The notes below the pieces were generated by a model, which saw only the letters and a list, made by a program, of their open reading frames with translations, was not told the origin of the DNA and searched no databases. 64,000 bases of DNA from Planctomycetota bacterium (GTDB lineage: Bacteria > Planctomycetota > B15-G4 > JADJEK01): positions 21,287 to 85,286 of the forward strand of contig JBGAIQ010000005.1 of the NCBI GenBank assembly GCA_044225365.1, in the 5' to 3' direction. The first letter of the stretch is position 1; every line of letters begins with the position of its first letter. The translations under genes and the position numbers were made by a program. This document shows, in pieces, positions 1,369 to 64,000 of the stretch.

Positions 1369-2832
<1,464 letters not shown>

Positions 2833-4745: not shown

Positions 4746-4859
4746 GGCACGGCTCCTACTTCGAGTTCGGGAACGATGGTTCCATCCCGTCGCCCTTCGA
4801 TTCGATGCCGAGAAAAAGCGCTTGGACCCAGGATTGAACCACGGAATCGGCATCGCCCG

Positions 4860-6020
4860 TCATCCGCTCATGGCCTGAGCGATCGAAGCCAAGGCCGACA
4901 CGATGGCGTCGACGTCGTCCTCGGTCGACGTCATCCCGAACGACGCGCGCACGGCGCCGCCCTCGAACGTCCCGATCGCGCGATGCGCGAGCGGCGCGCA
5001 GTGCAGACCGGCGCGCACCTCGATCCCGAATGCACTGTCGAGGACGAGTGCGAGCTCGTGCGGATCGAGCCCGGGAATGCGAAGCGGGAATACGGCCTCG
5101 CGCGCGCGCATCGACGTCGGCCCGAAGACCTCGACCCTTCCGACGGCACGAATCCGCTCGAGGAAGCGCTCGCCGAGCATCGCCTTGTGCGCGGCGATGG
5201 CGTCGATCCCGCGCGCGAGCAACACGTCGAGAGCCGCGTCGAGACCGGCGATCCCAGGCGTGTTCGCCGATCCCGATTCGTGGCGATCGGGCCAGCTCGA
5301 CGGCTGACGATCGTCCTCCGAATGCGTGCCCGTTCCGCCTTCGCGCACGGGCGCGAGATCGACGTGCGGCGCGACCCACAATGCTCCCGTTCCGAGCGGT
5401 CCGAGCAGCCCTTTGTGACCCGCGAATGCGACGAGATCGGCGCCGAGTTCGGCGGGATCCACGGCGCGTGTCCCCATGGTCTGCGCCGCGTCGACGAGCA
5501 CGAGCGCACCGACTCGATGCGCGAGCGCGGCGGCTTCGGCGACCGGTTGGATCGCGCCCGTCACGTTCGATGCGTGTTGGATCGCGAGCAGTCTCGTGCC
5601 CGGCACGAGCGCCGTGCGCAACTCCGAGAGTTGCACGACGCCCTCCGCATCCGCAGCGACTCGCACGACGACGCCGCCTCGAGTTTCGTGCGAGCGCAGC
5701 GGACGAAGCACCGAGTTGTGCTCCATCACCGTCGTGACCACGCGATCCCCAGGCTTCAAGATGCCGAGGAAGGCGAGATGCAACGCGTCCGTCGCGTTGA
5801 GCGTGAAGACGATCCGGTTGGGATCCTCGACGTGCAGCAGACGCGCGAGTTTGCCGCGAGCCTCCGCAACCACTCGCCCAGCCTCCACGGCGCGAGCCGA
5901 TGCCCCGCGCCCGGCCGCAACCCCCACATCGGTCAGATACCGGGTCATCGCCCGCGTGACCTCCTCCGGCTTCGGGAAGGATGTCGCGGCATGGTCGAGA
6001 TAACGTCGTGGCACGATCAT
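4860..6020 (-). CDS. Class V aminotransferase, cysteine desulfurase family (NifS/SufS/CsdA-like)
   Basis: 386 aa with an ATG start. The PLP-lysine motif AGHKGLLGPLGTG is present, and overall length and layout fit the class V aminotransferase fold. No suf or isc partner genes are adjacent. Confidence 0.75.
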   Translation of the reverse strand: MIVPRRYLDHAATSFPKPEEVTRAMTRYLTDVGVAAGRGASARAVEAGRVVAEARGKLARLLHVEDPNRIVFTLNATDALHLAFLGILKPGDRVVTTVMEHNSVLRPLRSHETRGGVVVRVAADAEGVVQLSELRTALVPGTRLLAIQHASNVTGAIQPVAEAAALAHRVGALVLVDAAQTMGTRAVDPAELGADLVAFAGHKGLLGPLGTGALWVAPHVDLAPVREGGTGTHSEDDRQPSSWPDRHESGSANTPGIAGLDAALDVLLARGIDAIAAHKAMLGERFLERIRAVGRVEVFGPTSMRAREAVFPLRIPGLDPHELALVLDSAFGIEVRAGLHCAPLAHRAIGTFEGGAVRASFGMTSTEDDVDAIVSALASIAQAMSG

Positions 6021-7762: not shown

Positions 7763-7809
7763 CCATTGACGAGTGGCCAACGGCGGTGCCCCCCTCTACG
7801 ATCGGCGCC

Positions 7810-8127
7810 ATGTTCCTCGCCACCGTCATCGGGACCGTCGTCACGCCGATCCAGCATCCGTTCTACGACGGCAAGAAACTCATGCTCGTGAGGGCCGAGC
7901 GGCCGGACGATGGCAAGCCTTCGCACGAAGGCGTCGTTCTCGCGGTCGACCGCGTGGGCGCCGGGATCGGCGAGAAGGTCCTCGTCCTGAAAGAAGGCAG
8001 CAGCGCACGCTCTCTGTTCGAGAATGACCGCGCTCCGGTGCGAACGGTGATCGTCGGAATCGTCGACGAGGTCGAGGTCGAAGGCGAGAGGACGTTCTTC
8101 GCCGGGGATGGAGGCACAGCGCGATGA
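7810..8127 (+). CDS. Bacterial microcompartment vertex protein (BMC-P; EutN/CcmL/PduN family, PF03319-like)
   Basis: From the ATG the protein reads MFLATVIGTVV...GKKLMLV...DGKP...LAVDRVGAGIGEKVLVLKEGSSAR...PVRTVIVGIVDEV. This matches the EutN/PduN/CcmL pattern along its whole length of about 105 aa. The stop overlaps the aldolase ATG (ATGA). Confidence 0.8.
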   Translation: MFLATVIGTVVTPIQHPFYDGKKLMLVRAERPDDGKPSHEGVVLAVDRVGAGIGEKVLVLKEGSSARSLFENDRAPVRTVIVGIVDEVEVEGERTFFAGDGGTAR

Positions 8128-8849
8128 CGGGTACGGACGAGCGCTCGCTCCAAACGCTGAAGCGGCAGATCACGGAGATCGCGCGGTTGTGTTGGGACCG
8201 CGGCTACATCGGCGCGATCGACGGCAACATCTCCGTGAAGCTCGACGATGGGACTCTGCTCATCACGCCGTCGGGCACGATCAAGTTCCTCATCGAACCC
8301 GACATGATCGTGAGGACCGACGCGCAGGGCACGCCGCTCTCCGGCGGACGCGCCTCGACCGAGATCAAGATGCACGTCGCGTGCTACCAAGAGCGCCCCG
8401 ACATCCGCGCCGTGGTGCATGCGCACCCGCCCACCGCCGTCGCATTCTCGCTCGCGGGCCTCGACATGATGAAGGCCCTGATCCCCGAACTCATCGTCAC
8501 GCTCGGCGCGATCCCGACCGCACCGTACGGGACCCCCGGCACCGAAGAACTGCCCGATTCCGTGCGCGAGTACGTGCGTTGCTCCGACGCGATCATCATG
8601 GAGCGGCACGGGGCGCTCTGCCTCGGCAAGGATCTCCTCGACGCCTACAAGAAGCTGGAACAGATCGAGCACAACGCGAAGATCATCTACATGGCGCATA
8701 CGCTCGGTCGCGTTCGCGAATTGCCGCAACCGGAAGTCGAGAAACTCCTCGCGACGCGTTCGCAGCTCGGCATCAAGACGACGAACGTGTACTGCAATCA
8801 GTGCGGGCACGAAGTGAACGGCGGCACGTCCGAGCCGCATCGACCGTGA
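8124..8849 (+). CDS. Class II aldolase/adducin family protein (L-fuculose-/rhamnulose-1-phosphate aldolase-like) with a C-terminal extension of about 40 aa
   Basis: 241 aa with an ATG start. The sequence IGAIDGNISVKL...ITPSG...HVACYQERPDIRAVVHAHPP has the metal-binding His pattern of FucA/AraD-type class II aldolases. Translational coupling with the BMC-P gene is indicated by the ATGA overlap. Confidence 0.85.
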   Translation: MTGTDERSLQTLKRQITEIARLCWDRGYIGAIDGNISVKLDDGTLLITPSGTIKFLIEPDMIVRTDAQGTPLSGGRASTEIKMHVACYQERPDIRAVVHAHPPTAVAFSLAGLDMMKALIPELIVTLGAIPTAPYGTPGTEELPDSVREYVRCSDAIIMERHGALCLGKDLLDAYKKLEQIEHNAKIIYMAHTLGRVRELPQPEVEKLLATRSQLGIKTTNVYCNQCGHEVNGGTSEPHRP

Positions 8850-25560: not shown

Positions 25561-28260
25561 TCAATTCCCGTCGTTTTCCAGCTTCGTCGCGAGTTCCGGC
25601 CGCCCGGTCGCCCGATAGACCGCGGCGAGGTCCTTCATGATCGCCGCTCGCAGCTCCTTGGCGTCGGATGAGACGTCCTTCTGCGCGCGTGTCAGCTCGC
25701 GTTCCGCCGCTTCCCAATCGCGACGGCGGACGTGGATCTTCCCGAGCGCGCAATGCGCCGCGGCGTTGCCCGCGTCGTCCTGCGGTCGCGCGTCGATACT
25801 CGCCTGCAGGTCCAGGAGCGCGTGGTCGTCGTCCTTCGCATCCGCGCGGGCGAGCCCGAGCTCGTAGCGCGTGGCGGCGAGAGTGGGATGGTCCTTGGGA
25901 AGTGCGATCGTTCGGATGCGAAGCACTTCCACCCAGTCGGCGACCGCGTCCTCGTACTCTCCGCGCAGACGATGCAGTGCCGCTCGCTGCGAGATCGTGT
26001 CGGCGGTGCGCGGATGGTCCGCGTGGAATTGCTTCGTCGCGGCGACGACGGCTTCGTCGAGCGCAGCCTTTGCGCCAGCGAGATCCTTCTGCGCGAGCGC
26101 GACCTGGGCGAGTCGAGGCAGCAGGATTGCGAGCGCTTCGGCGCCGGCGCCGCGCAGCTTGCGCATCCCTTCGATCGCGCGTTCGAAGTCGGCGCGAGCC
26201 GCGGGGAGGTCGCCGTCCTTCAGCTCGATCGAGCCGCGGTTCGCGAGACATTGGAGCGTGAGGTAGGCGTCGTCGCCGAGGATGCGTCGCCGCAGGTCGT
26301 AGGCGATGTCCAGGTTCTCCCTCGCTTCCTTCGTCATCCCCAGTCGGAGGAGCGCGGCGCCGAGGTTGTTCCGACTCTCCGCGACGCTGAGCGAACCAGG
26401 GAACTCCTTCTCGCGGATCGCGAGCGCGTCGCGATGCAGCTCGTAGGCGGCCTTGAAATCCCCGCAGGCGGCGGTCGCCGCGGCGAGATCGTTCATGGCG
26501 CGGGCGATGTCCGAATGGACCTCGCGAGGATGGAGACGATGGATGCGCAGCGCTTGCGCGAGGGTGTCGCGCGCGGCGACCGCGTTCCCTTCTTCGAGTT
26601 CGAGGGCGCCGAGATTGCCGAGGCTGAGCGCGTGCTCGAGGTGATCGTCTCCGAAGAACCCCACGCGGATCTCGAGGGCTTCCTCGATGAGAGCCTTCGC
26701 CTCGTCGCGCAATCCGACGTGGCGCGCCGCGGTGCCGAGGGCGTCGATGAGGTTTGCGAGGACGTGGGGATCCGTTGCGTACTTCTTGCGAACGTCCGTC
26801 GCCTGCTGGAGCAGTCGTTCACGAACGCGATCGCGAAGCTGTGGCTCTTCGTAGAAGTCCGCCTTCAGGAAGACGTCGGTGAGCGCGTCCGTGACCTGGG
26901 CCGACGACTCGGCCTCGATCGATGCGTGGTTCGCTTGGTCGATGGCCACCTTCCGCGCCCTTTCGGCATCGTCTCGCTCGCGCGTCGCGCTTCGCGCGAA
27001 CGAGAGGCTGACGATCGTGCCGCCGAGGAGCGAGGCCATGAGTGCGATCCCGAGCGACGTCGCAACGCGATGTCGGCTGGCGAAACGCTCGATGCGATAC
27101 CACGTCGAAGGGGGCCGCGCGACCACCGGAAAGCCGTCGAGATGACGACGCACATCGGCGGCGAATTCGAGACAACTTCGATATCGCCGCGCTGGTTCCG
27201 ATTCGAGCGCCATCCCGACGATCCGATCGAGATCGCCGAGAAGCGAGCGAGCGAGCTTCTCCGGCGTCAGACCGCGCGCCGCCGCGCGAGCCACGATCTT
27301 CTCTCGCTCGGTCGCGGGCGACAGTACTCGCGCGCTCGGCGGAACGAGGAGTGTGCTCGCATCGGCGCCGTTCGCGATCGCGCGGATCTCGCCCTGGGAG
27401 AACGGACGGGTGCCGGTGAGGAGTTCGTGGAGCACGACGCCTAGCGACCAGACGTCGCTAGCGATGCCGACGGCGCCGCCGCGCATCTGTTCGGGGCTGG
27501 CGTATTCCGGTGTGTATGCCGCGGGATTCGTGCCCGTCGGCGGCTTCACCGTCTCGCCGGGTTCGCCCTCGCCCTCTCGCAACAGCGCCGCCACACCGAA
27601 GTCGACGATTCGCGGTTCACCGTCGCGAGTCACGAGGATATTGCTCGGCTTGAGATCACGGTGGAGCACGAGGCTTCGATGCGCGTGATCCGCTGCGAGG
27701 CAGATCGTCTCGAACAGACCGAGTCGCTCGCGTAACGTGAGCCGCCGCTCGTCGCAGAAGCGATCGAGATGCTCCCCGTCGACGAGTTCCATCACGATGT
27801 ACGGAACGCCGTCGGCCGTCGCACCGCCGTCGAGGAGGCGTGCGATGTTCTTGTGCTCGATCCGCCCGAGGAGGCGTGGCTCGCGCAGGAAACGCCTCCG
27901 CATCGTGTCGGAGAGCAGCCCGACGTGGAGCAGCTTCACCGCGACGGGTCGCGGGATCGACCCGTCCGCGCGCATGGCGCGGTAGACCGAGCCCATGCCG
28001 CCCTCGGCGATCTTGCTCTCGAGGCGCCAATTACCGAACGTGGCGCCGACGAATGGATCGACCTGGATGCTGGGGATCGCCGTGCCGTCGACGACTCCGT
28101 TCTCGATCCGATCGGCCTCGAGCATTCGCTCGACCTGCGCTCGCAGAGTCGAATCGTCGCCGCAGCTCGACGCCACGAATTCATCGCGTTCCGCAGCGGG
28201 ACGCGCCAGCGCCGCTTCGAAGAGCTGCTCGATCCTGCGCCAGCGTTCCGCGGTCCACAT
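25561..28260 (-). CDS. Serine/threonine protein kinase with C-terminal TPR repeats
   Basis: 899 aa with an ATG start. Kinase motifs are intact: GxGxxG-like GGMGSVYRA, VAVKLL, HRDLKPSNIL, DFGVA and SPEQ. A transmembrane segment is followed by about 500 aa of TPR-like helical repeats. Confidence 0.85.
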   Translation of the reverse strand: MWTAERWRRIEQLFEAALARPAAERDEFVASSCGDDSTLRAQVERMLEADRIENGVVDGTAIPSIQVDPFVGATFGNWRLESKIAEGGMGSVYRAMRADGSIPRPVAVKLLHVGLLSDTMRRRFLREPRLLGRIEHKNIARLLDGGATADGVPYIVMELVDGEHLDRFCDERRLTLRERLGLFETICLAADHAHRSLVLHRDLKPSNILVTRDGEPRIVDFGVAALLREGEGEPGETVKPPTGTNPAAYTPEYASPEQMRGGAVGIASDVWSLGVVLHELLTGTRPFSQGEIRAIANGADASTLLVPPSARVLSPATEREKIVARAAARGLTPEKLARSLLGDLDRIVGMALESEPARRYRSCLEFAADVRRHLDGFPVVARPPSTWYRIERFASRHRVATSLGIALMASLLGGTIVSLSFARSATRERDDAERARKVAIDQANHASIEAESSAQVTDALTDVFLKADFYEEPQLRDRVRERLLQQATDVRKKYATDPHVLANLIDALGTAARHVGLRDEAKALIEEALEIRVGFFGDDHLEHALSLGNLGALELEEGNAVAARDTLAQALRIHRLHPREVHSDIARAMNDLAAATAACGDFKAAYELHRDALAIREKEFPGSLSVAESRNNLGAALLRLGMTKEARENLDIAYDLRRRILGDDAYLTLQCLANRGSIELKDGDLPAARADFERAIEGMRKLRGAGAEALAILLPRLAQVALAQKDLAGAKAALDEAVVAATKQFHADHPRTADTISQRAALHRLRGEYEDAVADWVEVLRIRTIALPKDHPTLAATRYELGLARADAKDDDHALLDLQASIDARPQDDAGNAAAHCALGKIHVRRRDWEAAERELTRAQKDVSSDAKELRAAIMKDLAAVYRATGRPELATKLENDGN

Positions 28261-31275: not shown

Positions 31276-31887
31276 TCATTCCGCCGCTGCGGGTGCGTCG
31301 CTTCCCGGCCCGCCAGGCAGCGCGCCGCCGATCTCGCTCTCCAAGTAGGCCCTCGCGATGCGCCAATCCCGCGCGACCGTCCGCTCCGAGGATTCGAGGA
31401 GCTGAGCGACCTCCGCGACCGAGAATCCACCGAAGAAGCGCAATTCGACGAGACGCGCCTTCTCGGGATCGACGACCGCGAGCTTCAAGAGCGCGGAATC
31501 GAGCGCGATCAAGCGATCGTCGGTCACCGGAACCGATTCGGCGGGATGACCGTCCCCGGTTCCGAGTTCGACCCGCTCGCGACCTCCGCCCCGCTTCTCG
31601 CTGCCGCGCGCGCGCGCATGCTCGATCAGGATGCGTCGAATCGTGCGGGCCGCGGCCGCGAAGAACTCGCCGCGCGAACCGATCGTCGGGAACGGCGCGC
31701 CGAAGAGGCGAAGATAGACCTCGTTCGCGAGCGCCGTCGGTTGCAACGTGTGATCCGCACGCTCGCCTTTGAGGAAATGGCGGGCGAGCCGACGGAAATC
31801 GGAATACACGGCCGACGCGAGTTCCCGTCCCGCGTCGGGATCCCCGTCGCGGGCGCGAGCGATCAGGCGATCGATGTCCACTTCCAT
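31276..31887 (-). CDS. ECF-type sigma-70 family RNA polymerase sigma factor (the kinase-associated ECF type)
   Basis: Starts at an internal ATG (MEVDIDRL...). Region 2, ...ALANEVYLRL..., and region 4, ...RLVELRFFGGFSVAEVAQLLESSERTVARDWRIARAYL, are both recognisable. No anti-sigma gene is adjacent. Confidence 0.75.
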   Translation of the reverse strand: MEVDIDRLIARARDGDPDAGRELASAVYSDFRRLARHFLKGERADHTLQPTALANEVYLRLFGAPFPTIGSRGEFFAAAARTIRRILIEHARARGSEKRGGGRERVELGTGDGHPAESVPVTDDRLIALDSALLKLAVVDPEKARLVELRFFGGFSVAEVAQLLESSERTVARDWRIARAYLESEIGGALPGGPGSDAPAAAE

Positions 31888-31965
31888 CCGGTAGCACTCC
31901 GTCGCGCGCGAGAATCGCTCAGCGCACGGCAACGCCCGGACAGGATAACAGGCGGACTCGATCCG

Positions 31966-33921: not shown

Positions 33922-33998
33922 TGGTACGCCCGTCGCGAGTCGAACGCGAAACCTTCGCCTTCGGAGGGCGACACTCTATCCAGTTGAGCTACGGGCGC
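33922..33998 (-). tRNA. tRNA-Arg (anticodon CCG), 77 nt with encoded CCA
   Basis: The minus-strand sequence GCGCCCGTAGCTCAACTGGATAGAGTGTCGCCCTCCGAAGGCGAAGGTTTCGCGTTCGACTCGCGACGGGCGTACCA folds as a cloverleaf. It has a 7-bp acceptor stem (G1-U72 wobble), D-arm GCTC/GAGT, anticodon stem TCGCC/GGCGA with loop CTCCGAA, and a T-arm with TTCGA. It aligns closely with E. coli tRNA-Arg(CCG). Confidence 0.85.
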
Positions 33999-52551: not shown

Positions 52552-52654
52552 CACCGAATCGTACGCCCGGTTCGTCGTCCGATCGTCTGTGTTTTTTCGA
52601 TGACTCGAAGCCCCAGGAGCGGGCGCGCCGTGCGGCGCTCGTAGACTGCTCGCG

Positions 52655-54841
52655 ATGATACCGTTCCTCCTCGTCCTCCTGGTCCTCGCGGTCGATCCCC
52701 ATGGGTTCGAGCCGCCCGCGTTGAAGCGAGCGTTGCTCCTCACCGCGGGGCCGCTGGCGTTGCTGATGCTCCTCCCGACGGGCGGGCTGCGACGGGTCGC
52801 CACGACGCCGCTCGGCTTCGGCCTCTCGGCCCTCGCACTGCTCTTCGCTTGGTCGTGCCTCGGGACGGTGATCGCCGGCGTGCCACTCGCGATCGGCGGA
52901 AAGGGCGTCGGCCTCTTGCTCCTCCTGCTCGCGTTCGCCGCGCTCGCCCGCGAGAACGCCACGAAGAACGCCTTCCGGCTCGGCGACAGCCTGCTCGCGC
53001 TCGGGCTCGTCTGCGCGGTCTACGCGATCCTGCAGCGAATCGGCTTCGATCCGCTCTTCCTCAATCCCGAGAAGAAGTCGGTCGCATTCTTCGGCAACAC
53101 GAATCGTGCGGCGGAATTCATCGCACCCCTCGCGCCGCTGGCGCTTGCGTTCCGTACTTCGCGCGGCGGCACACTCGCCGGGCTCGCCACGCTCGCGCTT
53201 CCGCTGCTCGTCGCGGCGACGATCCTCACGAACAGCCGCGCAGGTGCGATCGCCGCGGGAGTGGGCCTGCTCGCCGTTCTCGTGTTCACGTCCGATCCTT
53301 TGCGCCGCAAAGTCGATGTCGCGCTCATCGCGGCCGGCCTGTTGCTTCCGTTGCTGCTCGGTGGAATCGAGAACTACCGCTTCAAGAGCGTCGCCGAGAG
53401 CGAAGCGAGCATCGTCTCCCCCGACTATTCACCGAATCGTCAGCGCGAACTCCTCCTCGAGGCATCGCTGAGGATGAGCAAGGACTCGCCCCTCTTCGGA
53501 AAAGGAGCCGGGAACTTCCGATACGCGTTCCCTCGGTTTCGCGATCCCGAAGAAGCACGCATGCTCACCCTGGGCGGAGCGCTCTCGTCGGCGGAGGATC
53601 CGCACAACGAGTTCCTCCTGCTCGCGACCGAGTCCGGCATCCCGGCCGCGGCGCTCTTCGTGATCTTCCTGCTCAGCGCATTGCTCTCGGTGCGCACGTC
53701 CTCGCTGTGGCCGGCCGGCCATCCGTTGCGTGCCGCGGCGCCCGGCTACGCGGGGGCGCTGATCGCGCTGTGCGTGATGGCGGCCTTTCGATCGATCCTC
53801 GATCATGCCCCGGTCGCGCTCATGACGGCCGCGCTCGGTGGCAGCTTGCTCGCGTGTCGCGAGATCGATCCAGCATCGCGGCGCTCTGGGCCCCTGCTCG
53901 TCGTCCTTCCGATCTGGCTCGTTGCCATCGCGTTCCTCGGCGTACGTGCTCTCGCGTCCGAGATCTGCCTCGGTCTCGCCGCGCGCGACCTGAGCGCGAG
54001 CCGCCTCGTTCCTGCGATCGACGACCTCTCGAACGCGCGCATGTTCGACGGAACCAATCTCGCCGCAATGCAGCTCGAAGCCACATTGACCGAAGGCGCC
54101 GCGCGGCTCGATCCCAAACGCACCGATGCCGCGATCGCCGCGCGCCGCCGCATCCTCGCCCTCGACCCGAGCCACGTCACCTCGCACTTCCGGCTCGCAG
54201 CGCGAATGTACGAACGGGGCGATTTCGGCACGGCGCGCTCGCACCTGCGCTACGGCCTCTCCGTGCTGGGTGAGAACCGCAAGGGATGGAGCGAGAAGGG
54301 CGTCACCCGACTCCTCGAACAGAAGGAATTCCGCGCCGCCGCCATCTTCGAGAGACTGCGGCGCGTCGGCGGGGAAGGCACGCTCGGCGAATTGCGGAGC
54401 GAGGCCGATACCAACGCCAAGTCGCCGCAGCGCGATCGACAGGTCTTCGCCGCGGAACTCCTCGCGCAGTTCCTCGAGTTGCGCCCTGCCGACCCCGACG
54501 CGGCATACGATCTCGCCGAACTCTGCTCCAAACTCGAGGACAAGGCGCGAGCCGACTCGTACTACGAACGATCCCATCTCTGCCGAGCCGCGCAGGCACT
54601 GGAGCACAAGGACGTCGTCCTCGCCAAGCGCTCGCTCGCGAGCGCCCAGCACTATGGAGAGTCGTTCGACCTCTCCGTGCTGCTCTCCCTCGTCGCGCTC
54701 CTCGAGAAGGACTCGCTTCCGCTCGAGAAGCTCGAGCACGAGGCAAGAGGACAGAGGGTGTCGCGTCCGATCCACGAAGCCCTGGCACCTCTCGCCAAGA
54801 TGCCGGAGTTCGCCGACGCGCTGAAGCGCATCGGATCCTGA
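52655..54841 (+). CDS. O-antigen ligase (Wzy_C) family polytopic membrane protein with a C-terminal TPR-like helical region
   Basis: 728 aa with an ATG start. It has more than 10 TM helices, a central ...TNSRAGAIAAG... loop characteristic of O-antigen ligase/Wzy_C, and a soluble helical-repeat tail of about 300 aa. Confidence 0.7.
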   Translation: MIPFLLVLLVLAVDPHGFEPPALKRALLLTAGPLALLMLLPTGGLRRVATTPLGFGLSALALLFAWSCLGTVIAGVPLAIGGKGVGLLLLLLAFAALARENATKNAFRLGDSLLALGLVCAVYAILQRIGFDPLFLNPEKKSVAFFGNTNRAAEFIAPLAPLALAFRTSRGGTLAGLATLALPLLVAATILTNSRAGAIAAGVGLLAVLVFTSDPLRRKVDVALIAAGLLLPLLLGGIENYRFKSVAESEASIVSPDYSPNRQRELLLEASLRMSKDSPLFGKGAGNFRYAFPRFRDPEEARMLTLGGALSSAEDPHNEFLLLATESGIPAAALFVIFLLSALLSVRTSSLWPAGHPLRAAAPGYAGALIALCVMAAFRSILDHAPVALMTAALGGSLLACREIDPASRRSGPLLVVLPIWLVAIAFLGVRALASEICLGLAARDLSASRLVPAIDDLSNARMFDGTNLAAMQLEATLTEGAARLDPKRTDAAIAARRRILALDPSHVTSHFRLAARMYERGDFGTARSHLRYGLSVLGENRKGWSEKGVTRLLEQKEFRAAAIFERLRRVGGEGTLGELRSEADTNAKSPQRDRQVFAAELLAQFLELRPADPDAAYDLAELCSKLEDKARADSYYERSHLCRAAQALEHKDVVLAKRSLASAQHYGESFDLSVLLSLVALLEKDSLPLEKLEHEARGQRVSRPIHEALAPLAKMPEFADALKRIGS

Positions 54842-54851
54842 TCGCGCGCGA

Positions 54852-57800
54852 TCACTCGATGCCGTACTTCGAGATCAGAGTCTGCAGCCAGCGGCGTGTG
54901 ATGCCGAGGCGCTCCGCGGCCTTCCCGCGATTGCCCTCGCTTGCCCGAAGGGCGGCGACCACGAGCTCCTTCTCGTAGTTCGCGACGGCATCCTTCAGCG
55001 AGGTCTCGCCGGGTAGCGCCGATTCGCGCACCGGCGCGACGACCGCAGGAAGCGGCGTGCGCCGATAGTCCGGGGGAAGGTCTTGCGCGTCGATGGGATC
55101 GTGCGGCGACGTGAGCACCAGCGCGCGAACGACGGCCTCGAGCTCACGCACGTTGCCGGGGAAGGGTTGGGCCGAGAGATGTGCGAGCGCTGCGTCGGTG
55201 AATCCGCGCGGCTTGTCCCCCGAACGGCGCGCGATCTCGCTCGAGAAGTGCGCGACGAGCAACGGCACGTCGCCGCGCCGATCGCGTAGCGGCGGTACGT
55301 CGATCGGAATCACTCGCAGGCGCCAGTAGAGGTCCTCGCGGAATCGTCCTGCAGCCACCCACTCGACGAGCGGCCGATTCGTCGCCGCAACGAGTCGGAA
55401 GTTCACGCGCTGCGGTTTGTTCGAACCGAGCGGCCAAACCTCGCCGTCCTGCAACACACGCAGGAGCTTCGCTTGCATCGCGAGCGGCATGTCCGCGATC
55501 TCGTCGAGGAACAACGTGCCTTGATCGGCTGCGACGACGAGTCCCTCGTGATCGCGCGTGGCGCCCGTGAACGATCCCTTGCGGTAGCCGAACAGCTCGG
55601 CCTCGACGAGAGTCTCGGGCAGCGAAGCGCAGTTCACCGCGATGAATCGCTTGCGCCGCCGATAGGACCGATCGTGGAGCGAGCGCGCGATCAACTCCTT
55701 GCCCGTGCCGGCTTCGCCGAGCACCAGGACGGAGGCGTCGGAATCGGCGACGCGTTCAACGAGATCGAGGATGCCGAGCAACCGCGGATCCTGCGTCACC
55801 AACGGACTCGCAACACCCTTCGCCTCGAGTTCACGGCGCACTCGATCGAGATCGTCGCGAGCGGTCTCGAGTTCGCGCGTCCTCGCCTTCACGTCGGCGA
55901 GCAAGCGTGTGTTCAGCACCTCGATCTCCCCGCGGAGGCGTGCCCGATCGAGGACGATCGCGGCCTGCTCGGCGAGCGCCTGCGTCACGTTGCGGGCGGA
56001 GTCGTCGAAGCGATCGATCCGCTCCGGGTCATCGACGTAGATCGCTCCGATCACCTCGCCGCGCGCCTTGAGGGGCGCGCAGAGCACGGAGAGGAGGTCG
56101 AGGCGCGAGATGCTCTGGTACTCCTTGAATCGCTCATCGGTCCGCGCCTCCGAGGTGACGATCGTCTCTCCCGATGCGAGTGTTCGCTCGACGATCGAGC
56201 GGGAGAGTTGCATCGCGGGATCCTCGATGTCCTGTTGCCGCAGATTGCGCGCAGCCTCGAAGCGAAAGCTCGACTCGAAGCGCGTGACGACGAATCCGCG
56301 GCTCGCACCGAGCAAGTCGAGCGCGGTGTCGAGGATTCGGGTGAGGACATCGGCGACGGAGTCGGCCTCGTTGATCCACCGACTCGCTTCCAACACTTGG
56401 CGCAACTGACGATTCTCGCGCAGCAGATCGCGCTCGACGGCGGTGCCCTCGAGGGCCGCATCGAGCGCGGCGACGAGTTCGCGCGCGATCGCGATCCGGA
56501 GCCGGTGGCCGCAAGCAAGCGCATGGCGCTGCGCGGCGCGAGCCGCATCGCGCCCATCTCGGGCGAATTCGAAGGAGCCGTTCGCGAGGTCGAGCCGTAC
56601 GGCACGCGCGAAGGCGATGAGCACCGCGGCTTTCGTTGCGTCGTCGCTCGCCGTCTCGAGCGCGGAGAGGAGAGCGCAGCGTGCGGCATCGCGGCGCAGC
56701 AGCACCAACGCAGCCGCGCGGATGCCCGTGGCTTCGGCGAGCGCCTTGCGTCGACCCGCCGCTCGGGCGAGGCGACGCGCGAGGCGGGCGCGGCGGAGCG
56801 CACCGATGGGATCGGAGCGAAAGAGCTGCTGCTCGGCGACGAGTGATTCGGCCGTCGCGCGTTCACCCTGGCCGCCGGCGCGATCGGCGAGGAGGACGGC
56901 CCGCCGCGCGACACCCCACGCCGTCGCGATCTCCCCGCGATCGCGGGCCGCTTCTGCGATCGCGATCAGCACCGAGAGTCGGGCCGAGGCACGCTCCGGT
57001 CCCGCCGAGAGCTGGAGCGACTCGCGCACGGCCGCCCGGGTCCCGTCGATGTCGCCTAGGGTCGCGCGCGCCCGAATCAGTTCCGCCGCCGAGAGCGCGG
57101 CACCGGGATGAGCGTTCACGAACTTGCGATGCTCGAGGCTCTGCTCGAGACACTTCACGGCCGCTTCAGGATCGCCGAGGAAGAGGCGCGCGGCACCTTC
57201 GCCGGCGAGGGCCCACCCCAGGCCGCGACGATTCCCGGCTCGCGAGAACAGGATCGTCGCTCGTTGCAATGACTGGAACGCGCGCCGTGCATCCCCCGAC
57301 TCGAGTCGCGCGAGACCGAGTCGAGTGAGGACGTCCGGCAACAATCGTCGGTCGCTCGATCTCTCGAGCAGGTTCACCGCGCGTCGAAGCCGTCGCTCCG
57401 CGAGCGCGGCGCGCCCGGCCTCGAGATCGATCACGGCGAGCGTCGAATCGAAGTGCGCGGCACGCGCGAGGCGGCCGAGGCGACGCGACAATCGGCGCGC
57501 TTCGACGAACGCCTCGTGCGTGCGTCGCACGTCACCGGCCCGATCGGCGAGCGGACCTGCGACCGCGGCGATCTCGAGTCGCGCGGAGAGATCGTCGATT
57601 CCTTGGCGCAACGACCAGAGGGCGTTCACCTCGTTGCGCGCCTCGGCCGTCTTGCCTGCGGCATTCGCGGCCCAGGCGCGAGCCGCACGCAACCGGAACA
57701 CGTCGTTCCCGCGCGCCCGCAAGAGTGCCCGATCGAGCCGGTCGACGGCATCGGTTGCGCGCCCCATCCGCTCGAGCAGTTGCGCGTGCTCGACGGCGAG

Positions 57801-59969
57801 TTGGAATTGCGTCCCGTCGGGCGGGAGCTGCTCTGCCTGCGAGAAAGAGGTTTCCGCCTCGACGAGGCGTCCGGCCATCGCCAGCGCCCTCGCCCGTAGC
57901 GACTCGCGCACGTACGCCCGTTCGGGTCGCATGGGCTCACCGTCGAGCATCGAAAGAGCACGAAGCGCGAGCGTCGGGTTCACCTCGACGAGCGCGGCGC
58001 GCGCGCTCGCGAGAGCGTAGTGCCGTGGAGCCTTCCTGCCCGCAAACGCCAGCGACTGCGCGACCGACGCAAGCGTCGTGGCGTCACGACTCCGTCGCAA
58101 GAGAGCGCGCGCGATCGCCCGCGCGGCCTGCGCATCGTTCGGGCTCGCCACCTTGGAGGCGAGCGTCACGGCGATCGCCGAGTCGAGCACTCCCGTCTCG
58201 TGAGGCGGCTTGAAACCGCGCAACACGAGTAGACGCGTCGCGCGGGCCAACATCGCCAGGACGGCCGGCCCGAAGAGCCCGGTTGCCTCGACGAGCACCG
58301 GGATCGGCAGGGAGACCCGAACCTGGGCGAGGAGGACGAAGACGGATCGCGACTCGCTCGGCAATTCGTCGAGATAGGCCGTGAAGGAGTTGCGACCTCG
58401 CGAGTCGACGGCGGAATCCTCGATCACGGCGGCGTGCTCGGCGTCGTCGAGTCGTGCCAGATCCGCGACGATGCCGCTCTCCCGATCGAGCAATCCGCCG
58501 CGCCGCGCCAATTCGCGCACGATCGACCGCATGCGCCGTGGCGAACCGTCGGAGCGCCGCACGAGCTCCGCCGCGAGCGCCTCCGGAGCGAGGAGGCGCG
58601 GGATCGTCACCTCGAGGATCGCGAGGACGTCCGACTCGGCGATCGGCTGGATCATGAATTCATCGAACTCGACCACGAAGTCGACGGGCAATGCGAGACG
58701 CGCCGCGTCGACGTCGCCACCGAGTGCGATACCTCCCGCGACCTCGCCGCGAGCGAGCGCGGCCGCGAAGACCGCGAGCGCTTCGATCGCCGATCGACTC
58801 GCGTTCTCGACATCGTCGAGGATCGCGATCACTCCGGGCATCTTCTCGCGCGCGTTCGCGATCTCGGCGATCGCTCGAAGCGGCGAGTCGACTTCGGCGA
58901 GATCGAGCGTGAGGATCCCGCGAGCCCTCGCGAGTTCGCGCAGCCGCAACAAGTGCGTCGTTCGGCCGCTGCCAAGGCGCCCCCCGATGACCAGCGTGCG
59001 AGGACTCTCGCTCGAATCCTCGATCCCGGACGCGACGCCGCCGAGCCAACGCGCGAGGCGCTCCTCCGAAGTGCGGGCGAGGACGACTCGCCAATTCTCC
59101 TTCGTGCTCGTTGCATCGACGTCGCCCGTCCCGAGCAAGCGGCGGTGCACGGCTCGCGCGTCGAGGGTGCGGAGCGCTGGATCCGGCGCCAGGAGCCGCA
59201 AGAGGAGCTCCTCGAGGAAGGGTGCGGAACAGCGTTCGGCGACGCGTCGCGCCACGTCCGCGGGAACTCCCGCGAGGATCGCGCGGACCAAAGAAGTCGC
59301 GTCGGATCCGTCGGTCGACGGAGGGACGAAGAAGAGCGGTTCGCCGAGCACGACCTCGACCAGCAGGCTGCCGAACGCGTAGAGATCCGATGCGGCAGTC
59401 GGCGCCGCGGAGAGCAATCGTTCGGGGGCGAGGTATTGCAATGTGCCGTGACGCGCTCGCTCGGGATCGGCGAAGGCGGGGTCGATCAGCACGCCTCGTC
59501 CGCTCGGCGTGACGATCACGTTTTCCGGCTTGAGATCCCCGTGCGCGAGTTCGAGCGAGTGCATCGCGAAGAGGCCGAGAAGGACGTCGCCGAGCACCGC
59601 GAAAGCCTTCTCACGAGAGAGCGCAGGCAGTGCGGCTCGCAGGTCGCGGCCTTCGACGTAATCGCAGACGACGTACGAAACCCCCGTCGCGGGGTCGGTC
59701 TCGATCGCGAGCATCGTCGCGAGATTCTCGTGGCGGAAGCCGAGGAACGAGACGAGAGCCTCGACGTTCGCGAAGTCGGCACCGAGGCCAGCGGAATCGC
59801 TGCGATCACGGAGCAGTGCGCGATCGAAGCGTGGCGGCCGATCCGCTCGGCGCGGCAAGGGTCGCAGCACTCGTCGCGCGTTGCCGCTCGCCGTGTCCCG
59901 CACGAGCCATGGCGTTCTGGGCGCGACGACGGAGGCGAGCGCCCGCTCGACGCGGTAGCGTCCGAGCAA
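54852..59969 (-). CDS. Giant multidomain regulator: degenerate Ser/Thr kinase, P-loop NTPase (STAND/PknK-like), TPR, GAF, sigma-54 activator AAA+, Fis HTH. The start is uncertain: the track ORF extends to 60068 and overlaps fur; a TTG at 59969 is proposed.
   Basis: N-terminal kinase fold (LGRYRV..., HGDLKPENV, YLAPE). P-loop LVIGGRLGSGRTTHLL. About 600 aa of TPR-like repeats. GAF-like stretch ...GFVVTRFESSFRFEAARNL...GAIYVDD... Sigma-54 module GEAGTGKE, GSFTGA and LFLDEIAD, with an Arg finger. C-terminal HTH ...AAERLGITRRWLQTLISKYGI. Confidence 0.8.
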   Translation of the reverse strand: MLGRYRVERALASVVAPRTPWLVRDTASGNARRVLRPLPRRADRPPRFDRALLRDRSDSAGLGADFANVEALVSFLGFRHENLATMLAIETDPATGVSYVVCDYVEGRDLRAALPALSREKAFAVLGDVLLGLFAMHSLELAHGDLKPENVIVTPSGRGVLIDPAFADPERARHGTLQYLAPERLLSAAPTAASDLYAFGSLLVEVVLGEPLFFVPPSTDGSDATSLVRAILAGVPADVARRVAERCSAPFLEELLLRLLAPDPALRTLDARAVHRRLLGTGDVDATSTKENWRVVLARTSEERLARWLGGVASGIEDSSESPRTLVIGGRLGSGRTTHLLRLRELARARGILTLDLAEVDSPLRAIAEIANAREKMPGVIAILDDVENASRSAIEALAVFAAALARGEVAGGIALGGDVDAARLALPVDFVVEFDEFMIQPIAESDVLAILEVTIPRLLAPEALAAELVRRSDGSPRRMRSIVRELARRGGLLDRESGIVADLARLDDAEHAAVIEDSAVDSRGRNSFTAYLDELPSESRSVFVLLAQVRVSLPIPVLVEATGLFGPAVLAMLARATRLLVLRGFKPPHETGVLDSAIAVTLASKVASPNDAQAARAIARALLRRSRDATTLASVAQSLAFAGRKAPRHYALASARAALVEVNPTLALRALSMLDGEPMRPERAYVRESLRARALAMAGRLVEAETSFSQAEQLPPDGTQFQLAVEHAQLLERMGRATDAVDRLDRALLRARGNDVFRLRAARAWAANAAGKTAEARNEVNALWSLRQGIDDLSARLEIAAVAGPLADRAGDVRRTHEAFVEARRLSRRLGRLARAAHFDSTLAVIDLEAGRAALAERRLRRAVNLLERSSDRRLLPDVLTRLGLARLESGDARRAFQSLQRATILFSRAGNRRGLGWALAGEGAARLFLGDPEAAVKCLEQSLEHRKFVNAHPGAALSAAELIRARATLGDIDGTRAAVRESLQLSAGPERASARLSVLIAIAEAARDRGEIATAWGVARRAVLLADRAGGQGERATAESLVAEQQLFRSDPIGALRRARLARRLARAAGRRKALAEATGIRAAALVLLRRDAARCALLSALETASDDATKAAVLIAFARAVRLDLANGSFEFARDGRDAARAAQRHALACGHRLRIAIARELVAALDAALEGTAVERDLLRENRQLRQVLEASRWINEADSVADVLTRILDTALDLLGASRGFVVTRFESSFRFEAARNLRQQDIEDPAMQLSRSIVERTLASGETIVTSEARTDERFKEYQSISRLDLLSVLCAPLKARGEVIGAIYVDDPERIDRFDDSARNVTQALAEQAAIVLDRARLRGEIEVLNTRLLADVKARTRELETARDDLDRVRRELEAKGVASPLVTQDPRLLGILDLVERVADSDASVLVLGEAGTGKELIARSLHDRSYRRRKRFIAVNCASLPETLVEAELFGYRKGSFTGATRDHEGLVVAADQGTLFLDEIADMPLAMQAKLLRVLQDGEVWPLGSNKPQRVNFRLVAATNRPLVEWVAAGRFREDLYWRLRVIPIDVPPLRDRRGDVPLLVAHFSSEIARRSGDKPRGFTDAALAHLSAQPFPGNVRELEAVVRALVLTSPHDPIDAQDLPPDYRRTPLPAVVAPVRESALPGETSLKDAVANYEKELVVAALRASEGNRGKAAERLGITRRWLQTLISKYGIE

Positions 59970-59985
59970 GAGCTTCGCATCGCGA

Positions 59986-60465
59986 TCAGCCAGACTTCTC
60001 CTCCGATTTGCCGCACGCCGCGCAGAGGCCGAACAGCTTGAGCGTGTGCGAGAGCACTCGGAAGCCATGACGCTTCGCCGCCTGCTCCTGATGCGCCTCG
60101 ATCTCGGGATCCGAGAATTCCACGATGTCGCCGCATCGCAGACAGATCATGTGATCGTGGTGCTCGCGACCGTGGACCGGCTCGTAGAACTTGGCCTCGC
60201 GAGCGCCGATCTCCAACTCGTCGAGGAAGTTCGAGTCGACGAGCAACTTCAGCGTGCGATAGACCGTCGCCTTGCTGACGTACATGCGCTCGCGCTTCAG
60301 GACTTGATAGAGATCCTCGGCGGAGAAGTGCTTCGGCATCGAGAACGCGCGCTTCACGATCTTGAGCCGCTGCGCGGTGTGCTTCAGCTTGTTCTCGCGG
60401 AGGAACCGCTCCAGCAGTTCGTCGACCTTGGCGGCCTTCGCGCGTTTGGTCTCGCTCTGGATCAC
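59986..60465 (-). CDS. fur: Fur family transcriptional regulator (ferric/zinc uptake regulator-like)
   Basis: 159 aa. The GTG start overlaps the purD stop (GTGA). The DNA-binding helix ...KATVYRTLKLL and the metal sites HHDHMICLRCG and CAACG are present. Confidence 0.8.
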   Translation of the reverse strand: MIQSETKRAKAAKVDELLERFLRENKLKHTAQRLKIVKRAFSMPKHFSAEDLYQVLKRERMYVSKATVYRTLKLLVDSNFLDELEIGAREAKFYEPVHGREHHDHMICLRCGDIVEFSDPEIEAHQEQAAKRHGFRVLSHTLKLFGLCAACGKSEEKSG

Positions 60466-61742
60466 GCCGAAGCCTCGTAGTCCTTGCGCCCGATGTCGGT
60501 GCGATAGAACGCCTTCTCGAAACGAATCCGGGCAACCCTGCGGTAGGCCTTCTCACAGGCCTGGCGAAGGTCTGTCCCGAGTGCGGAGACGGTGATCACT
60601 CGCCCGCCGGCCGTTACGACGCTTCCGTGATGCAGGGCCGTACCCGCGTGGAAGACCGATACGCCCTCTTCGGCTTCGTCGCGGAGGCCTTCGATCGGGT
60701 AACCCTTCTCGAAGCTGCCGGGATAACCTCCCGAGGCGATCACGACGGCGCAGCAAGGCCGCGGGTCCCACTCGAGTCCCTTCGACTGGTCGAGCTTCCC
60801 ATCGACCGCGAGCGAGAGCAACTCGAGCAGATCGGTCCGAAGCCGGGGAAGGATCGCCTGCGCCTCGGGATCGCCGAGCCGCACGTTGAATTCGAGCACT
60901 TTCGGGCCCGCCTTCGTCAGCATCAATCCCGCGTAGAGGAAGCCGACGAAGCGGTGTCCTTCCCGAGCGAGAGCGTGAACCACCGGGACGAAGACCTGCG
61001 ACTCGACCTGCCGGAGGATCGCCGGAGTGATGTTGCTCGCGGGACAGACGGCGCCCATTCCGCCGGTGTTCGGGCCGCGGTCGAAGTCGAACGCCTGCTT
61101 GTGATCGCGCGCTGCCTCGAGGGTGGCGATCGTGCGGCCGTCGACGATCGCGATCACAGATGCCTCACTGCCCTGCAGGAACTCCTCGATGACGAGGCGC
61201 GCCCCGGCCTCTCCGAAATCTTGCGTCACCATGAAGCGATCGATCGCCGCGAGCGCCTCGTTGCGATCGGCCGCGATGATGACGCCCTTGCCCGCCGCGA
61301 GGCCGTCGGCCTTCAACACGATCGGGAAATCGACGATGGCGTCGATGTACGACCGCGCAGCGTTCGCATCCTGGAAGATGCGGAAGCCGCCGGTCGGGAC
61401 GTGGTACTTGCGGCATAGTTCCTTGGTGAAGGCCTTACTGCCTTCGAGGCGAGCCGCGCCGGCGACGGGGCCGAAGATCTTGAGGCCGCTCGCATGGAAC
61501 GAGTCGGCGATGCCGAGTACGAGGGGCGCCTCGGGTCCCACGACCGTGAGGTCGATCGCCTGCGCCTTCGCGAACGCGGTGAGGCCCGCGACGTCGTCGA
61601 TCTTGATGTCGACGGTCTCGGCGATCTCGGACATGCCGACGTTGCCCGGTGCGACGAACAACTTCGAGAGCCGAGGAGAACGCTGGATGGCTGCGCAGAG
61701 CGCGTGTTCGCGCCCGCCGCTGCCGATGACGAGTACTCGCAT
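60462..61742 (-). CDS. purD: Phosphoribosylamine--glycine ligase
   Basis: Starts at an internal ATG of track ORF 60462..61970 (MRVLVIGSGGREHAL...), giving a full-length PurD of about 427 aa with an ATP-grasp fold. Confidence 0.9.
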   Translation of the reverse strand: MRVLVIGSGGREHALCAAIQRSPRLSKLFVAPGNVGMSEIAETVDIKIDDVAGLTAFAKAQAIDLTVVGPEAPLVLGIADSFHASGLKIFGPVAGAARLEGSKAFTKELCRKYHVPTGGFRIFQDANAARSYIDAIVDFPIVLKADGLAAGKGVIIAADRNEALAAIDRFMVTQDFGEAGARLVIEEFLQGSEASVIAIVDGRTIATLEAARDHKQAFDFDRGPNTGGMGAVCPASNITPAILRQVESQVFVPVVHALAREGHRFVGFLYAGLMLTKAGPKVLEFNVRLGDPEAQAILPRLRTDLLELLSLAVDGKLDQSKGLEWDPRPCCAVVIASGGYPGSFEKGYPIEGLRDEAEEGVSVFHAGTALHHGSVVTAGGRVITVSALGTDLRQACEKAYRRVARIRFEKAFYRTDIGRKDYEASA

Positions 61743-61918
61743 CAAAACCCCGAACACTGCCATTTTGCGGCGCCGTCGCCGCTCGTGAGCCGGCAAAAAG
61801 TACCAGCATCGCGAACCCCGGCAAGGACCGCGCCGAAAAAACGGCGACAGATTCGCGCGCGCCGGAGACGACATCGTAGACTCGATCGTGTCGAGCCCAT
61901 TCTGTCCGTTCGAATCCG

Positions 61919-63187: not shown

Positions 63188-63411
63188 GCGCCACGTTTCG
63201 CGCCCGCTCGCTGGCGATCACGCGCGCGGCTTTTCCGTGGCTTTTCGATGCAGTCCCCTCGACATCGCGATATGGTGTCTCGCGTTCAGGAACGCTGCGC
63301 AACCACACACCGACGGCCGTCCAACGCTCGAGCTTCGCCCGGCGATGAACGCGGGAGCGACCCGCATCGATCCGGCTCCACTGTCGACTCGAGGGATGGT
63401 CTGGGGTAGCC

Positions 63412-64000
63412 ATGCAGAGCGAGAGTGACGCGGTGACCGACAGCGTCGCGCCGATCGATTCGATGAATCCCGTTCGTTCCGATTCACCGCCGCAGGATCT
63501 CGGGCGCGACGTCTCCAGGTCGACCGCGCTGCCGATCGCGCCGATCCTCGCGCTCCTCGCCGGGGTCTTCAGCGTCGCGTCGGTGGGCGCGTCGATCCTC
63601 GCCGTGGCGGCGACGCGCGAGCTCTCCTTCCTGCAGTCGACACAAGTCATCGGCGCACTCGCTCTGCTCGCGCTCGCACTGCTCGCACGACGGCGATCGT
63701 CGCAACCCCTGCCGATCGGCCGCCTCGGACTCTGGCTCGCTGCGACCGCCCTCACGATGGCTGGAGCCGTCGAACTGCCGAGTTGGCCGTCGATCGATAC
63801 CTTCGGGATCGGAGTCACCTTCCCGTTCCTCGTTCTGCTCGCCCTCCTCACGTACTTCGTCCTCGAACGGGACACCGACGGCGCGACATCGGGCATGATC
63901 GCGTGCGTGATCTTCGCGGCCTTCGGCGGACCGCTCTTCCTGCGCGACGGCGATGCCTTCCACGCGGTGCATCTGCTGCTCGCCATCGCCGGCGTCGGAA
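63412..64000 (+). CDS. Polytopic membrane protein, 3'-truncated at the window edge
   Basis: An ATG at about 63412 opens a frame with no stop before the window ends. Strong GC3 bias and several hydrophobic helices are present (PIAPILALLAGVFSVASVGASILAVAA...). It is not in the ORF track because it lacks a stop. Confidence 0.4.
   Translation, partial: MQSESDAVTDSVAPIDSMNPVRSDSPPQDLGRDVSRSTALPIAPILALLAGVFSVASVGASILAVAATRELSFLQSTQVIGALALLALALLARRRSSQPLPIGRLGLWLAATALTMAGAVELPSWPSIDTFGIGVTFPFLVLLALLTYFVLERDTDGATSGMIACVIFAAFGGPLFLRDGDAFHAVHLLLAIAGVG

Follow-up and report, generated by a model that had tools for sequence, protein, structure and literature searches.

A single minus-strand gene in a 64,000-nucleotide stretch of contig JBGAIQ010000005.1 from a Planctomycetota bacterium (assembly GCA_044225365.1; the whole stretch is called the window below) encodes a protein of some 1,700 residues in which a protein-kinase fold, a STAND-type NOD (nucleotide-binding oligomerization domain) and a superhelix of tetratricopeptide repeats (TPR) precede a GAF domain, a sigma-54 interaction AAA+ domain and a Fis-type helix-turn-helix (HTH). 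We favor the view that this protein is a one-component sigma-54 activator, or bacterial enhancer-binding protein (bEBP), gated by a non-catalytic sensor and oligomerization scaffold, and give this overall picture a probability of roughly 0.6. It is almost certain that we are dealing with a genuine gene for a fused bEBP, that the fusion is conserved and that no chimera is involved. Kinase-STAND-sigma-54 fusions are common in the databases, including in long-sequenced myxobacterial genomes, and the fusion itself is not new. Rather, the window protein adds one new member to a catalogued family, and its clade carries what appear to be ‘dead’ substitutions in both the kinase and the STAND P-loop.

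A sequence-only reading of this region had proposed one polypeptide with, in order, a kinase fold, a P-loop, TPR repeats, a GAF domain, a sigma-54 AAA+ domain and an HTH. Pfam searches, matches to Protein Data Bank (PDB) structures and two AlphaFold2 models, each built from an alignment of 67-68 homologues, recover this arrangement (Table 1), and the four motifs quoted in that reading (LVIGGRLGSGRTT, GEAGTGKE, GSFTGA and LFLDEIAD) are all found in the translation.

Table 1. Window coordinates of the fused regulator gene, its domains and its immediate neighbors
Feature	Coordinates	Strand	Residues or length	Basis or remark
Whole open reading frame (ORF)	54852..60068	(-)		stop codon at 54852-54854; probable real start CTG 59993 or TTG 59969
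Hanks-type protein-kinase fold, predicted pseudokinase	59103..59972	(-)	~33-322	Pfam, StkP/PknB alignment, AlphaFold2 and Foldseek, motif statistics
STAND-type NOD (P-loop nucleotide-binding domain, helical domain, winged helix)	58164..59021	(-)	~350-635	weak Pfam match, AlphaFold2, Foldseek
TPR/SUPR-like superhelix, ~28 helices, MalT-like sensor	56499..58163	(-)	~636-1190	
GAF domain	55944..56363	(-)	1236-1375	Pfam GAF (E = 3.9e-17), GAF_2 (E = 3.6e-15), NifA 9qq6_C alignment
Sigma-54 interaction AAA+ domain and lid	55056..55799	(-)	1424-1671	Pfam, ZraR 1ojl alignment
Fis-type HTH_8 DNA-binding domain	54885..54983	(-)	1696-1728	Pfam (E = 6.9e-8), aligned to ZraR C-terminus
Fur-family regulator gene	59986..60465	(-)	159 aa	NCBIfam Fur/PerR models; directly upstream of the large gene
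purD (phosphoribosylamine-glycine ligase)	60462..61763	(-)		TIGR00877 (E = 6.9e-154); first gene of the purD-fur-EBP run
Convergent Wzy_C (O-antigen-ligase-like) membrane protein gene	52655..54841	(+)	728 aa	Pfam on contigs, tblastn

A full-length homology check, which had been suggested as a way to probe the prediction, indicates that the fusion is conserved in relatives, with at least 120 fused database clusters. At a threshold of E 1e-10 the search gave 215 proteins. Each of the best 120 (1360-2035 aa) carries PF00069 and PF00158, and usually GAF, HTH_8 and TPR matches as well. Named sources include metagenome-assembled genomes (MAGs) of Planctomycetota, Polyangia/Myxococcota, Acidobacteriota, Gemmatimonadales and Eisenbacteria, and the isolates Pseudenhygromyxa sp. 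and Sandaracinus amylolyticus. At the genome level, 15 of 84 loci have a kinase match and a sigma-54 match on one strand at a distance of 3-5 kb, and six of these 15 are the clade's own. Contigs with fused genes include those of Sorangium cellulosum So ce26, Chondromyces apiculatus DSM 436 and Eisenbacteria. Family proteins are named ‘sigma 54-interacting transcriptional regulator’ by NCBI, an annotation that is right yet incomplete, and some are named ‘PknK’ or ‘transcriptional regulator with GAF, ATPase, and Fis domain’ by JGI.

The five closest relatives (P0002-P0006) share 42-52% identity with the window protein, and four of them align across 95-98% of its length. For P0006 the best single local alignment reaches only 57% coverage, yet all domains are matched. 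Together with the window protein these sequences form a small divergent clade of six members. A representative search with the N-terminal 608 residues, which gauges only this small clade (matches weaker than E 1e-30 are generic kinases), yielded about eight clusters (at 50% identity) better than that value; the ninth match at this level is a 3940-aa protein that aligns in its kinase domain only. Relatives in genome collections are labeled Planctomycetota, the best genome matches being ‘Planctomycetota bacterium’ MAGs at 32-38% identity.

The case for a non-catalytic sensor begins with the kinase fold. The Pfam Pkinase match is confined to residues 111-302 (E = 1.2e-17; profile positions 55-253 only), and neither Pfam nor alignment to StkP and PknB gave a sequence alignment of the N-lobe to any known kinase. 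Despite this absence the N-lobe is still predicted to fold as such, because Foldseek alignments span whole kinase domains: the model of residues 33-640 (predicted local distance difference test [pLDDT] 83.9, predicted template modeling score [pTM] 0.82) matches those of Staphylococcus aureus PknB/Stk1 and Mycobacterium tuberculosis PknB and PknA in the PDB over ~290 columns, with target-normalized template modeling (TM) scores of 0.72-0.78.

Several catalytic motifs of this domain are degenerate. The Gly-rich loop GxGxxG is absent, with LASVVAPRTP at the loop position, a column in which at least 90% of relatives have Gly. In beta3 the motif is RVLR, with Arg69 in place of Lys, and exchange of Lys for Arg at this position is a standard kinase-dead substitution. 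DFG is replaced by D196-P-A, and in the StkP alignment the Phe-Gly is missing outright. An insert of ~26 residues lies ahead of helix C. HGDLKPEN, D196 and LAPE are retained and align to StkP. Throughout the six-member clade the Gly-rich loop is missing, Arg occupies the beta3 Lys position and Asp-Pro stands for Asp-Phe/Leu-Gly, and no compensating conserved Lys was seen in beta1-beta2. Because the Gly-rich loop, the beta3 Lys and the Phe-Gly of DFG have been lost, we judge it quite probable that the domain is a pseudokinase throughout this clade. ‘Kinase-type sensing or scaffolding’ had been suggested for this part of the protein; sensing via phosphotransfer now seems unlikely given the motif losses in the clade, and it is the scaffold role that we propose.

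The alternative that retains most merit is nevertheless an active kinase, whose (auto)phosphorylation would couple Ser/Thr phosphotransfer straight to the AAA+ output, which would be the sequence-only reading in its strongest version. The retained HGDLKPEN, DFG Asp and APE elements and the confident prediction of the whole kinase fold speak for it, as does the wider family. Among the best 120 relatives neither the Asp of the catalytic loop nor that of DFG ever varies (120/120), HGD stands instead of HRD in 103, which makes these non-RD kinases, the beta3 Lys is present in 97 and a GxGxx[GSA] loop in 92. Because these residues are mostly kept, most of the wider family looks like a set of competent non-RD kinases. 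However, the window clade departs from its relatives at precisely these positions, no substitute Lys is apparent and the N-lobe of the window protein does not align to kinases by sequence, and we regard an active kinase as improbable here.

The next domain was detected by Pfam only as an nSTAND_NTPase5 match at residues 350-428 that falls under the Pfam cut-off (E = 3.9e-4), and homologues of the window protein often show AAA_16, nSTAND or TPR_MalT matches. An AlphaFold2 model of residues 335-1235 (pLDDT 92.4) contains a P-loop alpha/beta domain of five strands, together with a helical domain, a winged-helix region and ~28 paired helices. The top Foldseek match of this model is the STAND-TPR protein 6mfv_A (E = 2.9e-11, 707 columns), and the MalT sensor 1hz4 is also among the best structural matches. 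These matches, along with the JGI name ‘PknK’ for homologues, uphold the earlier description of the front half as a PknK/MalT-like kinase-STAND-TPR arrangement. Within the superhelix Pfam recognizes TPR_12 at residues 914-981, and a long helix (~1189-1234) connects the superhelix to the GAF domain.

The Walker A motif of the NOD reads GRLGSGR369TT (nucleotides 58956-58982), which is non-canonical relative to GxxxxGK[ST] in that Arg replaces Lys, while the Walker B motif VIAILDD (hhhhDD) is kept. Among the best 120 relatives the Walker A Lys position holds Arg in 56, Lys in 29 and other residues in the remainder; in the clade, the Lys is kept by two members and one has GAGCA. Across the family as a whole, the NOD may bind nucleotide rather than hydrolyze it.

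The C-terminal 523 residues carry the output. They match ZraR (1ojl, E = 8e-74) and NifA chain 9qq6_C (E = 1e-72), the latter from the GAF domain via AAA+ to the HTH. Pfam GAF spans residues 1240-1373 and is followed by a helical linker of ~45 residues (1376-1423), Sigma54_activat (residues 1424-1589, E = 3.5e-65, 219 bits against a cut-off of 20.2) and AAA_lid_14 (residues 1595-1671, E = 6.6e-20). Alignment to ZraR places Walker A (GEAGTGKE), Walker B (LFLDEIAD), the arginine-finger region (FREDLYWRL...LRDRRGD), sensor II (GNVRELE) and the HTH. Thus, Pfam and the ZraR alignment agree with the claim that the sigma-54 AAA+/HTH output is complete. Because His is missing from the GAF domain and Cys occurs there only once, a NorR/PexR-type metal centre is unlikely in it.

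The Pfam search of the whole protein gave no Response_reg match at E 0.1 or better, in keeping with the expectation that no two-component receiver is present. The label ‘NtrC-type’ that had been attached to the output half was not borne out: with its receiver absent and NifA 9qq6_C aligning from GAF to HTH, the GAF-AAA+-HTH module is of the NifA/NorR type. Matches to NCBIfam models (NifA, NorR, AtoC, NtrC and others) are confined to the C-terminal third, with the NtrC models covering its AAA+-HTH part only, and none reaches the equivalog cut-off of its model (NifA, TIGR01817: 336.6 bits, cut-off 528.85; NorR, NF003451: 317.9 bits, cut-off 476). By these scores the protein is related in layout to NifA and NorR, yet an orthologue of neither.

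The L1 loop, which in ZraR reads GAFTGA, is GSFTGA in the window protein, with Phe and Thr kept. Relatives have GAFTGA in 88 cases and GSFTGA in five, and three orthologues (P0004-P0006) have GAFSGA. In a separate sub-group of the family GAFTGA is replaced by LFGILPxxATGV/ATDV (P0032, P0078, P0079, P0086, P0089, P0090 and P0093, as well as P0095, P0098, P0100, P0106, P0108 and P0111). These proteins have probably lost contact with sigma-54, like TyrR/VpsR-type derivatives.

A protein of the latter kind, a sigma-54-independent transcription factor whose AAA+ domain no longer contacts sigma-54 (as in TyrR, HupR or VpsR), would be compatible with the departures from GAFTGA in this clade, with the existence of a family sub-group that has no such loop altogether and with our failure to find a nearby -24/-12 promoter. 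In contrast, the loop Phe and Thr and the ATPase motifs are intact in the window protein, the matches to ZraR and NifA are very strong, the Sigma54_activat score exceeds its cut-off by a wide margin, and the genome evidently uses the sigma-54 machinery (see below). We consider this alternative slightly less credible than an active kinase, and we infer that the window protein depends on sigma-54 in vivo.

Evidence on sigma-54 promoters in the window is mixed. A scan with the consensus TGGCAC-N5-TTGC, allowing up to two mismatches, found 13 sites where 12.4 are expected, which is chance level. Inspection for an RpoN-type promoter had been put forward as a check on the prediction, and it came out negative, with no -24/-12 site near the gene or its conserved neighbors. 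Likewise, the divergent intergenic region upstream of the Wzy_C gene (52552-52654) has no -24/-12 element. Two candidate elements were rejected. A motif common to three of the syntenic loci described below (L004-L006), TGGCCCTCGGnnTGCT, looked like a conserved promoter but lies ~75 nucleotides inside the 5′ end of the large Wzy_C coding region, in a transmembrane-helix stretch. A second sequence, TGGCTTTTCGATGCA at 63238-63252, has a GG-to-GC spacing that is one nucleotide short and overlaps a terminator-like hairpin.

In a position-specific scoring matrix scan of the window just one -24/-12 site was strong, namely TGGCACGGAGCATGCA at 1239-1224 (score 16.1; next best 11.2). Nearby at 1369-2832 (-) is a second sigma-54 EBP gene encoding 487 residues, the first 150 of which have no Pfam match. 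Past this gene, on the same strand, come a perfect palindrome, GGTGGAAAAC-A-GTTTTCCACC, at ~1351-1331 and, beyond the promoter-like site, a small ORF of ~77 codons (ATG 1210 to 977, minus strand). As judged from its sequence, the 1224-2832 region looks like a complete enhancer and sigma-54 promoter unit; it has no match to an Rfam family. Because the window holds this second EBP gene and a strong canonical -24/-12 site, the source genome very probably uses sigma-54.

These findings suggest how the large protein might operate. STAND proteins are closed, ADP-bound monomers at rest and multimerize once an inducer acts on the sensor (PMC6468293), and in group III bEBPs, for example PexR, the GAF domain autoinhibits the AAA+ domain via a signaling helix until ligand is sensed (PMC12754779). 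By our proposal, the N-terminal ~1200 residues would form a PknK/MalT-like STAND switch that serves as a largely non-enzymatic scaffold for sensing ligands or proteins. This scaffold would keep the AAA+ module inactive until the TPR superhelix, the pseudokinase and/or the GAF domain senses a signal, which would then permit or drive oligomerization, with scaffold and GAF domain together gating assembly of the AAA+ ring at enhancers. The ring would form, hydrolyze ATP and remodel sigma-54 RNA polymerase through the GSFTGA loop, and the Fis-type HTH would bind upstream activating sequences, by analogy with NifA and NorR. That the NOD in particular controls oligomerization is a tentative element of this scheme, to which we give somewhat less than even odds. 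A stricter version, in which the pseudokinase, the Walker-A-defective NOD and the MalT-like TPR domain act as a purely allosteric switch that nucleates or blocks the sigma-54 AAA+ ring in cis, is rather unlikely as it stands.

Several observations weigh against a sigma-54 activator gated by a non-catalytic scaffold. The loss of kinase activity was read from motifs, and since HGD, KPEN, the DFG Asp and APE are kept, some atypical activity is possible. Two clade members retain the Walker A Lys, so nucleotide handling by the NOD may still be relevant. The window protein and three orthologues do not have GAFTGA as their L1 loop, although the variants look conservative. No sigma-54 promoter lies near the gene or upstream of its conserved neighbors, the whole 45-64 kb interval being clear, and no rpoN is in view within the 64-kb window, the only stretch covered. 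Also, our literature search found no experimental study of any family member.

The surroundings of the gene were compared in a synteny set of seven loci, comprising the window's own (counted together with an independent assembly) and L002-L007. All share a gene order in which a divergent NHL/Vgb-lyase-like propeller gene is followed by co-oriented purD, fur and the large gene, and then by a convergent Wzy_C gene. In the window purD and fur overlap by 4 nucleotides, and the stop codon of the Wzy_C gene is 10 nucleotides from that of the EBP gene. Fur is 75-84% identical in the six other loci, whereas the large gene product is only 32-52% identical. The convergent Wzy_C gene of ~730 codons is present in six of the seven loci, the contig of L007 being too short to show the position. 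A methyltransferase gene occurs in three syntenic loci, and a further large Wzy_C protein is encoded nearby in at least four.

Two or three Wzy_C proteins flank the regulator, both in the window (52655-54841 (+) and 63412-64000 (+)) and in L002-L006 where the contigs are long enough; TPR repeats are present in one of the flanking proteins, and one is cut off by the end of the window. In L004, purD and fur are called as a single fused ORF of 584 codons (3738-5492; GARS and FUR domains), and an extra gene of 730 codons is inserted between this ORF and the regulator.

Passages of one survey associate sigma-54 generally with cell-envelope polysaccharides (PMC3162934), which fits the proximity of the Wzy_C genes. 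The evidence linking the large gene to control of cell-envelope polysaccharide is circumstantial gene order, and we consider such a link doubtful. A connection with Fur-related physiology is suggested by gene order only. A tie between the adjacent fur gene and a metal- or peroxide-sensing GAF domain, as in PexR or NorR, was considered and rejected, since the GAF domain here lacks His and contains just one Cys.

Kinase, STAND NTPase and TPR modules are known building blocks of conflict systems, and the PADLOC models PD-T4-6 and MkoA match the kinase domain, which raises the question of whether the protein is an anti-phage or other conflict-type STAND (Avs-like) sensor with a transcriptional effector. 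However, these matches are generic, as is that of RtcR to the sigma-54 AAA+ domain, and they leave the NTPase uncovered. Moreover, at seven loci the gene keeps a stable chromosomal position beside the housekeeping genes purD and fur, and its composition is uniform with its surroundings. We therefore hold a role of this kind to be very unlikely.

The ORF at 54852-60068 comprises 1738 codons counted from the first ATG and has zero internal stops in the ORF listing. GC content at the third codon position is 0.73-0.91 in each 100-codon block beyond the first, second-position GC is low throughout, and the base composition of the gene region is the same as in the remainder of the window. An identical protein is present on a separately assembled 18-kb contig. 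An internal stop or frameshift, or halves that match separate proteins only, had been named as findings that would overturn the prediction; instead the frame is open and fused homologues cover 93-98% of the protein. An assembly chimera or decayed pseudogene joining PknK-like and EBP genes, for which the unusual length is the sole argument, can be set aside given the unbroken ORF with its uniform codon signature, the identical protein on an independent contig, the homologues at 42-52% identity and at least 120 fused relatives.

The start codon of the gene probably differs from both available calls. Codons 1-28 of the ORF overlap the upstream fur gene (59986-60465) and have codon-position GC values, in the ORF frame, of 0.50/0.82/0.54, which is the fur signature; because of this overlap and signature ATG 60068 is probably an overlong start. 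The public gene call (P0001, 1620 aa) begins at Met119; the stretch at issue is 59714-60068. Residues 29-118 have the signature of the large gene itself (0.77/0.56/0.79, compared with 0.75/0.51/0.81 for the whole gene), and residues 33-118 align to the N-termini of orthologues (RYRVER, PWLV.D, RRVLR). Because of this signature and alignment, translation must begin upstream of Met119, and the public call, which cuts away the kinase N-lobe, is too short. A strong Shine-Dalgarno sequence, GGAGGAG, is located 5 nucleotides upstream of CTG 59993. The true start is probably a non-ATG codon, either CTG 59993 or TTG 59969, giving a protein of ~1705-1713 residues.

Elsewhere in the window are several genes of independent interest. 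A canonical Hanks kinase fused to TPR repeats is encoded at 25561-28260 (-) (899 aa; Pkinase E = 3e-40, with TPR_12 and TPR_10), and the notion that it partners the pseudokinase is pure speculation. At 7786-8849 (+) an EutN/CcmL-type microcompartment vertex protein is encoded, with a class II aldolase gene directly after it, a pair that resembles the planctomycetal gene set for sugar-degrading microcompartments. A Planctomycete-type extracytoplasmic function (ECF) sigma factor at 31276-31932 (-) (PF07638, E = 1.2e-53) supports a Planctomycetota-like origin of the window. The sole match of the Rfam search is a tRNA gene at 33925-33998 (-).

Comparison with known systems clarifies what is distinctive about the large protein. 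Its C-terminal 520 residues have the same layout of GAF domain, signaling helix, AAA+ domain and HTH_8 as the GAF-type group III bEBPs NifA, NorR, FhlA and PexR, to which the window protein adds ~1200 N-terminal residues comprising the kinase fold, NOD and TPR domain. STAND activators of the MalT or PH0952 type also have TPR (SUPR) sensors, but their effector is a LuxR or ArsR HTH whereas here it is GAF-AAA+-HTH; in addition, the window protein has the Walker A Arg and a kinase fold N-terminal to the NOD. M. tuberculosis PknK consists of a Hanks kinase, an AAA/STAND domain and a MalT-like TPR domain, and thus shares the architecture of the front half, in line with the JGI label of several homologues. 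PknK, however, is an active kinase without a GAF, sigma-54 or HTH output, whereas the window protein combines degenerate kinase motifs with its own DNA-binding activator. Relative to the database family (Pkinase-(AAA_16)-TPR-GAF-Sigma54_activat-HTH_8), domain order, length class and HGD are shared, but the clade no longer has a G-loop, a beta3 Lys or the DFG Phe-Gly.

A related solution has reportedly been described in Myxococcus xanthus by Jelsbak, Givskov and Kaiser in 2005, where FHA-domain EBPs are said to provide an indirect, conceptual link from Hanks-kinase signaling to sigma-54 activators without a two-component relay. In that case the kinase is separate and is read by FHA, whereas in the window protein the kinase fold is fused in cis and Pfam finds no FHA domain. 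The sensory modules named in reviews of bEBPs are receiver, GAF, PAS, V4R and the like. In one inventory of EBP types ~43% are of the receiver type, 12% PAS and 10% GAF, and the passages of it covered here do not mention a Hanks-kinase/STAND class (PMC3162934). Our literature search found no paper on a Pkinase-sigma-54 fusion, although Perez et al. 2008 on the myxobacterial kinome fell outside this search.

The architecture is abundant in Myxococcota, Planctomycetota and relatives. It places two oligomerizing NTPase machines, the STAND NOD and the sigma-54 AAA+ ring, in one chain, and therefore a member of the family could show one assembly switch controlling another. The window clade is a natural ‘double-dead’ version, altered in the kinase and with Lys changed to Arg in Walker A, and could be used to separate scaffolding from catalytic roles. 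If the purely allosteric switch were true, it would represent a mode of bEBP control undescribed for studied activators, and one that might govern the Wzy_C genes or a Fur-linked response.

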